A DNA stretch of 64,000 nucleotides from a virus (lineage: Duplodnaviria; Caudoviricetes), in IMG/VR virus record IMGVR_UViG_3300032324_000938, positions 1 to 64,000 of that record; one strand, 5' to 3'. The number at the start of each line of letters is the position of its first letter. Within the stretch, counting starts at the first letter, position 1. Shown one piece after another: positions 32,696-32,842 of this stretch. Below the pieces are notes generated by a model. It did not search any database. It was not told the origin of the DNA and saw only the letters and a list, made by a program, of their open reading frames with translations. Position numbers and translations under genes: made by a program.

Positions 32696-32779
32696 ATGAG
32701 AGTACAGTATACACATATTAAGCGTTGGGATACATTTACAAATAATAATTGTGAATGTGTTGACGGTGATATTGTATAA
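32696..32779 (+). CDS. Putative leader peptide of tRNA operon 1 (MRVQYTHIKRWDTFTNNNCECVDGDIV)
   Basis: Codons match the downstream tRNA set; overlaps the antiterminator strand. Confidence 0.75.
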   Translation: MRVQYTHIKRWDTFTNNNCECVDGDIV

Positions 32780-32842
32780 ACTTGATTATAGAATAATTTT
32801 AACAATGTCAACCGTCACCTGAGAACAAAGTGACGGTTTTTT
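32761..32842 (+). promoter_or_regulatory. Attenuator 1: antiterminator (32761-32774 with 32803-32817) competing with terminator (32810-32842)
   Basis: TGACGGTGATATTG pairs CAATGTC-A-ACCGTCA; AACCGTCAC/GTGACGGTT stem + U-run. Confidence 0.75.

Follow-up and report, generated by a model that had tools for sequence, protein, structure and literature searches.

In this study, we report a candidate ribosome-mediated (leader-peptide) transcription attenuator, here called attenuator 1, which heads a tRNA gene array in an uncultured phage; from folding models and comparison with related loci, we put the probability that it works in this way at about 0.6. The element lies in a stretch of 64,000 nucleotides (the window), positions 1 to 64,000 of IMG/VR record IMGVR_UViG_3300032324_000938, which is 75,398 bp long with 32.6% G+C. 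The window carries two tRNA arrays and one tmRNA gene, and attenuator 1 occupies the interval between a 336-codon gene (3' end at 32656) and the first tRNA of array 1 (33166). Coordinates are those of the window, and features lie on its plus strand except where marked. The switch was first proposed from the letters of the sequence (the original prediction), and the present analysis followed up that proposal.

In the mechanism that we propose, transcription would begin just upstream of the leader mini-ORF or enter from the preceding gene, and a ribosome would translate the 27 codons of the leader while RNA polymerase advances. With fast decoding, the ribosome would have reached the last codons or the stop by the time 32802-32817 emerges, covering 32761-32775; with this strand covered, the 5' arm of the terminator would be free, the 9-bp terminator would form and polymerase would stop at the U-run. 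Under a shortage of charged tRNA, a stall at any of codons 2 to about 18 would free the antiterminator strand, which would zip with 32802-32817 before the 3' arm of the terminator exists, and polymerase would continue in the direction of the tRNA genes.

Sequence sources and folding methods

Relatives were gathered from IMG/VR, which was probed with the gene before array 2 and with short DNA anchors. The comparison set for attenuator 1 comprised 12 distinct IMG/VR homologues, on contigs of 29 to 304 kb, representing 9 peptide variants. The INPHARED phage collection held no relatives by DNA or by protein, a protein-pattern scan using the gene upstream of attenuator 1 gave no matches, and the same was true of an exact scan using the window's own terminator 1 sequence. 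PHROGs offered no function for the genes flanking the tRNA arrays. A search of the window against Rfam at the gathering score returned the tRNAs and the tmRNA only.

Nascent RNA was folded at increasing lengths, and with a ribosome footprint forced single-stranded; this footprint spanned 15 nt upstream and 12-14 nt downstream of the first A-site base. As a benchmark, E. coli trpL was taken from the K-12 record and scored identically, with the ribosome at the second Trp codon. Conservation of the lower part of the antiterminator helix was scored by per-sequence folding instead of column-wise pair counts, which undercount this helix because some lineages pair it in a register one base off. Metatranscriptome contigs from 4 RNA libraries were found on 32756-32856, on 32827-33087 and on the tRNAs, and none on 32400-32755; such contigs cannot give ends, strand or level, and with DNA carry-over also possible, no conclusion was drawn from them.

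The leader mini-ORF and its conservation

Leader mini-ORF 1 (32696-32779) starts with an ATG at 32696, ends with TAA at 32777-32779 and consists of 27 codons plus the stop. It is preceded by a promoter-like region (32659-32688) with a weak -35-like hexamer at 32659-32664 and an AT-alternating box at 32681-32688. The box is invariant in the aligned relatives, and an identical box precedes the leader of array 2 (leader 2). Since the box ends only 7 nt before the ATG, the 5' UTR would be very short or absent. A Shine-Dalgarno motif is absent at leader 1, and such motifs precede just 9 of 35 phage genes. The spacing of the box would also suit a leaderless mRNA, an option that was considered for leader 1 but is unneeded, as the phage genes mostly do without Shine-Dalgarno motifs anyway.

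The ATG and the reading frame are kept across the 9 peptide variants, and the indels among them (6, 6 and 12 nt) are all in-frame. Within the conserved core, variable sites are mostly third-position and synonymous (position 3 > position 1 > position 2), with changes such as Lys AAG/AAA, Arg CGT/CGC, Thr ACA/ACC/ACG and Val GTA/GTT. The preserved frame, the indels that respect it and the silent third-position changes all suggest that leader 1 is translated. The stop codon has the same position in most variants and comes earlier, inside the pairing strand, in relatives L020 and L024. A peptide core of Ile-Lys-Arg..Trp..Thr-Phe-Thr is retained even in L024, the most divergent relative; the Thr-Phe-Thr codons also constitute the 5' arm of a hairpin (hairpin 1, described below), so that their conservation can be structural.

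The DNA upstream of attenuator 1 is unrelated between lineages, and the unit and the array stay together. Judged from these alignments, the attenuator module travels with the array and not with the upstream gene.

Antiterminator, terminator and hairpin 1

The original prediction had placed an antiterminator strand at 32761-32774, inside codons 22-27 (Val-Asp-Gly-Asp-Ile-Val) of the leader, and had it pair over 14 bp with 32803-32817. Both were confirmed, and one further pair (32775:32802) extends the helix to 15 bp. The 5' strand thus runs from 32761 to 32775 and ends 1 nt before the stop codon, with a lower part (TGACGG, 32761-32766) and an upper part (32767-32775). Its partner, the 3' strand (32802-32817), pairs through 32802-32810 with the upper part (9 pairs) and through 32812-32817 with the lower part (6 pairs), leaving A32811 bulged; the helix contains one G·U, and the hairpin is worth -18.7 kcal/mol. 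Intrinsic terminator 1 (32810-32848) has a 9-bp stem (32810-32818/32830-32838) with 5 G-C pairs, an 11-nt loop and a ΔG of -12.4. The U-run (32837-32848) reads, after the stem, as six T, one G and five T. As had been claimed, the antiterminator sequesters the 5' arm of the terminator, of which it occupies 7 of the 9 bases. After read-through, the terminator loop and 3' arm (32819-32852) can in turn pair with the U-run region; this pairing amounts to 12 bp in the minimum free energy (MFE) fold of 32680-32855 and would hold the terminator open.

A 10-bp hairpin had also been noticed at 32732-32758 and proposed as a pause site. This hairpin is real and forms the core of a 13-bp structure (hairpin 1, 32729-32761; ΔG -11.3 kcal/mol), which lies inside the ORF directly 5' of the antiterminator strand. 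It neither overlaps nor competes with that strand, and its possible role is that of a pause or spacer element.

The attenuator 1 region folds more stably than its dinucleotide shuffles (z = -4.05). The duplex of the ORF with 32798-32818 (-20.6) was matched by 9 of 5000 shuffled ORFs (p about 0.002), and a duplex of the ORF with the 5' arm of the terminator alone by 116 of 5000.

Among the relatives, both antiterminator strands are conserved and the loop between them is highly variable. The terminator stem is invariant in 12/12 relatives, all of them retrieved by anchors near or on the stem, and the terminator loop varies. By per-sequence folding, the antiterminator, in which the terminator arm pairs with the last codons, is part of the MFE structure in 11/12 related loci. 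RNAalifold on the 12 homologues recovers hairpin 1, the upper helix and the terminator, i.e. the terminated state. Double changes across the relatives affect two pairs, one in hairpin 1 (A-U in 6 sequences, C-G in 5) and one in the upper helix (G-C to U·G, in L024). In all variants, the stop codon follows the start of the antiterminator strand at a distance of 6 to 18 nt. The distance is 16 nt in the window, so that a terminating ribosome would cover all but the outermost antiterminator pair.

Ribosome position and the choice of fold

When the leader RNA was folded without a ribosome, the full antiterminator was the MFE structure once 32816 had been transcribed, and it remained so until the 3' arm of the terminator appeared. 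With the transcript ending at 32829, the lower helix had a probability of 0.997-0.999 either without a ribosome or with the A site at codons 1-18, and a probability of 0 with the A site at codons 19-28, stop included. In these models the fold depends on the position of the ribosome, with a boundary between codons 18 and 19. Footprint-constrained folding thus reproduced the predicted behaviour: the strand is masked by a ribosome at the stop and becomes available when the ribosome stalls upstream. The boundary divides the leader into a sensing zone, codons 2-18, at which a stalled ribosome leaves the antiterminator strand free, and a masking zone made up of codons 19-27 and the stop.

In silico, the antiterminator is kinetically competitive with the terminator. 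It forms first, its energy gap and barrier resemble those of trpL, and it recurs in all but one of the related loci. Once the 3' arm of the terminator has been made, equilibrium favours the terminator (P = 0.92). Only the 6-bp lower helix is exchanged with the terminator, and the 9-bp upper helix coexists with it. As the terminator wins at equilibrium, the switch must be kinetic, with the antiterminator pre-empting the terminator. The equilibrium fold of the full attenuator, in which the terminator prevails for most ribosome positions, had been tried as a criterion and was rejected in favour of the pre-formed state, the energy gap and the barrier, because trpL behaves likewise at equilibrium.

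With the ribosome at the second Trp codon, the E. coli trpL antiterminator lies 2.7-2.8 kcal/mol above the terminator state, with a findpath barrier of 5.8 kcal/mol. The pre-formed antiterminator of attenuator 1 lies 0.9-2.2 kcal/mol above its terminator state in most ribosome settings (the magnitude of the gap is 4.3 kcal/mol in one setting), and the findpath barrier is 6.6-7.4 kcal/mol in most settings and 9.1 in one. By this crude measure, the modelled antiterminator of attenuator 1 is at least as competitive as that of trpL, an attenuator that has been proven.

There is no overlap between hairpin 1 and the antiterminator strand, and the predicted outcome without translation is therefore read-through. 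Leader nucleotides 7-25 pair long-range with the antiterminator strand in some MFE folds, and this pairing is poorly conserved; in our folding models, a convincing anti-antiterminator is absent from attenuator 1, unlike in trp.

The read-through default of untranslated RNA lends something to a different explanation, in which the choice between terminator and antiterminator is set by a factor acting in trans, either a phage or host RNA-binding protein or direct binding of tRNA in the manner of a T-box. The alternative helices it needs are real and conserved, and RNA predicted to be in the antiterminator state could be reset by such a factor. We nevertheless regard it as quite improbable: searches of 32600-33160 against Rfam gave no leader, riboswitch or T-box match, or any other family, at the gathering threshold or at E up to 5, the coding signs of the mini-ORF (conserved frame, in-frame indels, synonymous third positions) favour translation, and a trans factor gives no role to the isotype match described in the next section.

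tRNA arrays and the codons of the leaders

Array 1 (33166-38378) encodes Thr, His, an odd tRNA (possibly Gln-CUG), Arg, two Glu, Trp, two Asn, Tyr, Phe, two Lys, Asp, Ile, Val, Arg, Thr and Cys, with homing-endonuclease genes within it. The isotypes of array 2 are Val, Pro, Leu, Ala, Ser, Gly and Gln. Five tRNAs were missed by default ARAGORN: tRNA-His (33260-33335), tRNA-Glu(UUC) (33510-33586) and tRNA-Tyr (35205-35291) in array 1, and tRNA-Ser(UGA) (42668-42753) and tRNA-Ser(GCU) (42845-42941) in array 2. All five have good cloverleaves with non-canonical T-loops or D-arms; the His, UUC Glu and Tyr tRNAs were confirmed by hand because their T-loops are non-canonical, and the two Ser tRNAs were located by hand. 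The odd tRNA (33342-33419) has an oversized anticodon loop, which ARAGORN interprets either as a four-base anticodon (ctct) or as Gln(CUG) with a 3-nt insert. Homologues were found in six relatives (L001 2469-2544, L013 1468-1544, L014 4165-4240, L018 2645-2720, L021 4954-5029 and L025 3310-3385), and this tRNA may decode quadruplets or be a Gln tRNA of unusual form. ARAGORN also called a tRNA-Asn with a 51-nt insert at 34944-35069. Homing-endonuclease genes of the GIY-YIG and HNH types lie in or near array 1, at 33902-34651 (+), 36085-36636 (-) and 28072-28929 (-). A phage tmRNA is located 3' of array 2, at 44676-45058; near-identical tmRNAs are present in relatives L003 and L007, with a tag that differs at three residues.

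Leader 1 draws 25 of its 26 codons from the isotype set of array 1 (binomial p 3e-4 to 8e-4; dinucleotide-shuffle p 0.011) and uses all 14 isotypes, a coverage that was reached in 21 of 3837 shuffles. For leader 2, 15 of 16 codons fall in the isotype set of array 2 (binomial p about 1e-5; dinucleotide-shuffle p 6e-5). The match between codons and arrays holds at the level of the isotype, and at the level of the anticodon only in part.

Within the sensing zone of leader 1, one to three codons are found per isotype (Arg, Val, Gln, Tyr, Thr, His, Ile, Lys, Trp, Asp, Phe and Asn), and all 12 isotypes read there have tRNA genes in array 1. Over the 9 leader-1 variants, which are related and whose counts are therefore non-independent, 141 of 142 codons in the sensing zone and 58 of 79 in the masked zone belong to the set. 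The Gly, Ala and Met codons of the variants all lie within the last ten codons, in or adjoining the pairing strand. The sole off-set codon of leader 1 in the window, Gly GGT (32765-32767), likewise lies within the pairing strand; the original prediction had explained this exception by the pairing, an explanation that fits the clustering of off-set codons in the masked zone across the variants.

The sole exception in the sensing zone is a Leu TTG codon, which occurs in a lineage whose array 1 carries tRNA-Leu(CAA); the array-1 copy of this tRNA was seen in L026, a relative at 93% identity whose locus is truncated at the start of its own leader. In the window, tRNA-Leu(CAA) is in array 2. The Gln CAG codon of the leaders does not track canonical tRNA-Gln(CUG) in either direction, and Cys is absent from some leaders despite a tRNA-Cys in the array. 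Covariation of single codons with single tRNAs is thus seen once, for Leu-TTG, and not for Gln-CAG or Cys, which are too few events to count.

These comparisons leave little room for chance, i.e. for a plain terminator behind the upstream gene to which an open frame and complementarity were added by accident. In its favour, a genome of 33% G+C abounds in short open frames and A/U-rich pairings. The shuffle tests speak against it for the pairing (9 of 5000) and for the codon matches of both leaders (0.011 and 6e-5), and so does the conservation of the element next to different upstream genes. Moreover, the same combination of mini-ORF and terminator occurs twice in the genome of the window and also in dozens of loci, and we consider a chance origin hardly credible.

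A second unit before array 2 and other leaders

The second unit (41836-41960) lies before array 2 and contains a 17-codon leader (41836-41889), a 1:2 hairpin (41850-41901), an antiterminator formed by about 41887-41899 with 41918-41930, and a terminator (41918-41926/41941-41949) followed by a U-run. In the absence of a ribosome, folding yields the 1:2 hairpin and leaves the terminator arm mostly unpaired. When the A site is placed at codons 2-15, this arm pairs upstream with a mean probability of 0.74-0.85, which drops to 0.40, 0.28 and 0.09 with the A site at codons 16, 17 and 18. By folding, unit 2 behaves like a classical four-segment, trp-like attenuator.

Homologues of leader 2 keep the 17 codons, and their residue replacements fall mostly within the array-2 set. 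In L026 (12022-12170), a diverged leader 2 of 24 codons has a different terminator stem and is followed by a promoter-like site and tRNA-Val; its composition is unchanged (Ser/Val/Gln/Ala/Gly/Pro/Leu). A third type of leader was found in another phage contig, L019 (1417-1544), flanked by tRNAs for Glu and Met on its upstream side and for Gln on its downstream side. It has 19 codons, is rich in Thr, Lys, His, Asn, Phe, Arg, Asp, Cys, Gln and Gly, and has the same terminator stem.

Promoter-like sites behind the terminators

Three sigma-70-like promoter-like sites (32854-32881, 32944-32971 and 33034-33061), with a good -35 hexamer and an extended -10, lie between terminator 1 and the first tRNA of array 1, and a further promoter-like site (41965-41992) lies directly 3' of the unit 2 terminator. 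The extended -10 pattern has five matches in the 75-kb genome, three of them just after the two terminators. The sites behind the terminators are consensus matches only, and they are conserved in the relatives. Consensus scans place promoter-like sites between the leader and the controlled genes, where a strict attenuator would have no promoter. The arrays may be driven mainly from these sites; if the sites are active, the attenuator gates only the transcription that arrives from upstream, the source of which would be the leader's own promoter-like box (32681-32688) or the preceding gene.

Between these sites and the first tRNA, a conserved element of about 56 nt (33058-33113) was observed. 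It is common to array 1 of the window and array 2 of relatives, with 79% identity (L003 1308-1363, L004 1458-1513, L007 851-906 and L026 about 12520-12590), and is a possible processing signal or small structured RNA.

The conserved promoter-like sites directly behind each terminator also favour the most serious rival to attenuation, namely that the mini-ORF unit stands alone as a small gene or small RNA, transcribed from a promoter of its own and ended by an ordinary terminator, and that tRNA output is set by the downstream promoters only. The terminator would then also insulate the strong tRNA promoters just behind it, the helices would stabilise the short transcript, and the amino-acid bias would serve some other purpose, such as a peptide with the conserved Ile-Lys-Arg..Trp..Thr-Phe-Thr core. 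The retention of this core even in L024 and the coexistence of terminator and upper helix at equilibrium are in keeping with such a gene; as noted, the Thr-Phe-Thr part can be accounted for by hairpin 1. It leaves unexplained why two unrelated leaders are written near-exclusively in the isotypes of their own arrays, why the strand complementary to the terminator is always in the last codons, and why replacements in leader 2 remain within the set despite drift of the peptide. We therefore consider the small-gene explanation unlikely, and prefer attenuation by a translated leader, in which we infer both the translation of leader 1 and the dependence of termination on it.

Discussion

The general mechanism of leader-peptide attenuation is as summarised in PMC1183508. 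Attenuator 1 resembles the trpL, hisL, ilvGMEDA and thr leaders in having a short ORF with regulatory codons, an intrinsic terminator with a U-run, and a mutually exclusive antiterminator that overlaps the 5' arm of the terminator, with a ribosome at the stop masking the antiterminator strand and an upstream stall freeing it. Its energetics are comparable to those of trpL under identical scoring, and the closest counterparts among the amino-acid-operon leaders are the multivalent ilv and thr leaders. The phage unit differs in preceding tRNA genes instead of biosynthetic enzymes, and in sampling about 12-14 isotypes with one to three codons each, whereas the amino-acid-operon leaders feature runs of codons for one to three amino acids. 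Attenuator 1 also differs from them in having no clear 1:2 anti-antiterminator, so that its predicted default when untranslated is read-through, in having no Shine-Dalgarno motif, in having promoter-like sites 3' of the terminator, and in being found in a phage.

In E. coli, pheST, an operon for the aminoacyl-tRNA synthetase of one amino acid, is controlled by leader-peptide attenuation through the pheM leader. As proposed for attenuator 1, the leader senses codons served by the downstream product, which gives feedback on the translation machinery; the products in the phage are instead the tRNAs themselves, for many amino acids. T-box riboswitches are similar in that a choice between terminator and antiterminator reports on the tRNA pool and controls translation-related genes. 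In contrast, T-boxes bind uncharged tRNA through a specifier loop and a T-box sequence and need no ORF, whereas attenuator 1 has a conserved reading frame and no T-box match; judged by its sequence, it is not a T-box.

Control by leader-peptide attenuation is textbook knowledge, with known cases in amino-acid biosynthesis, in resistance genes and in a handful of synthetase genes. To our knowledge, it has not been known for tRNA genes or in phages. A search of the full-text literature found no account of attenuators that precede tRNA genes or belong to phage tRNA arrays, and trp-operon-style control of tRNA genes seems to be unpublished.

As to what such control would be for, our tentative suggestion, which we hold at somewhat below an even chance, is that in large uncultured phages the attenuator serves tRNA supply on demand, a multi-isotype leader peptide gating each array by the speed at which its own codons are decoded. 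Acting as a demand sensor, the leader would respond when the host pool of any sensed tRNA falls, and the terminator would open to yield more of that block of tRNAs; possible causes of such a fall are a mismatch in codon usage, host shut-off and anticodon-nuclease defence. On this reading, read-through would add materially to tRNA output, with tRNA supply on demand as the pay-off.

If this is true, phage tRNA arrays would be regulated accessories with feedback from decoding speed, and not constitutive cargo, which would bear on the question of why phages carry tRNAs, whether for compensation of codon usage or for countering the depletion of host tRNAs. The leader would be a compact natural multi-input sensor of translation elongation, in which the geometry tells sensing from non-sensing codons. 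Sensing codons placed upstream and structure-bound codons kept to the masked zone would in that case amount to a design rule, legible in the sequence alone.
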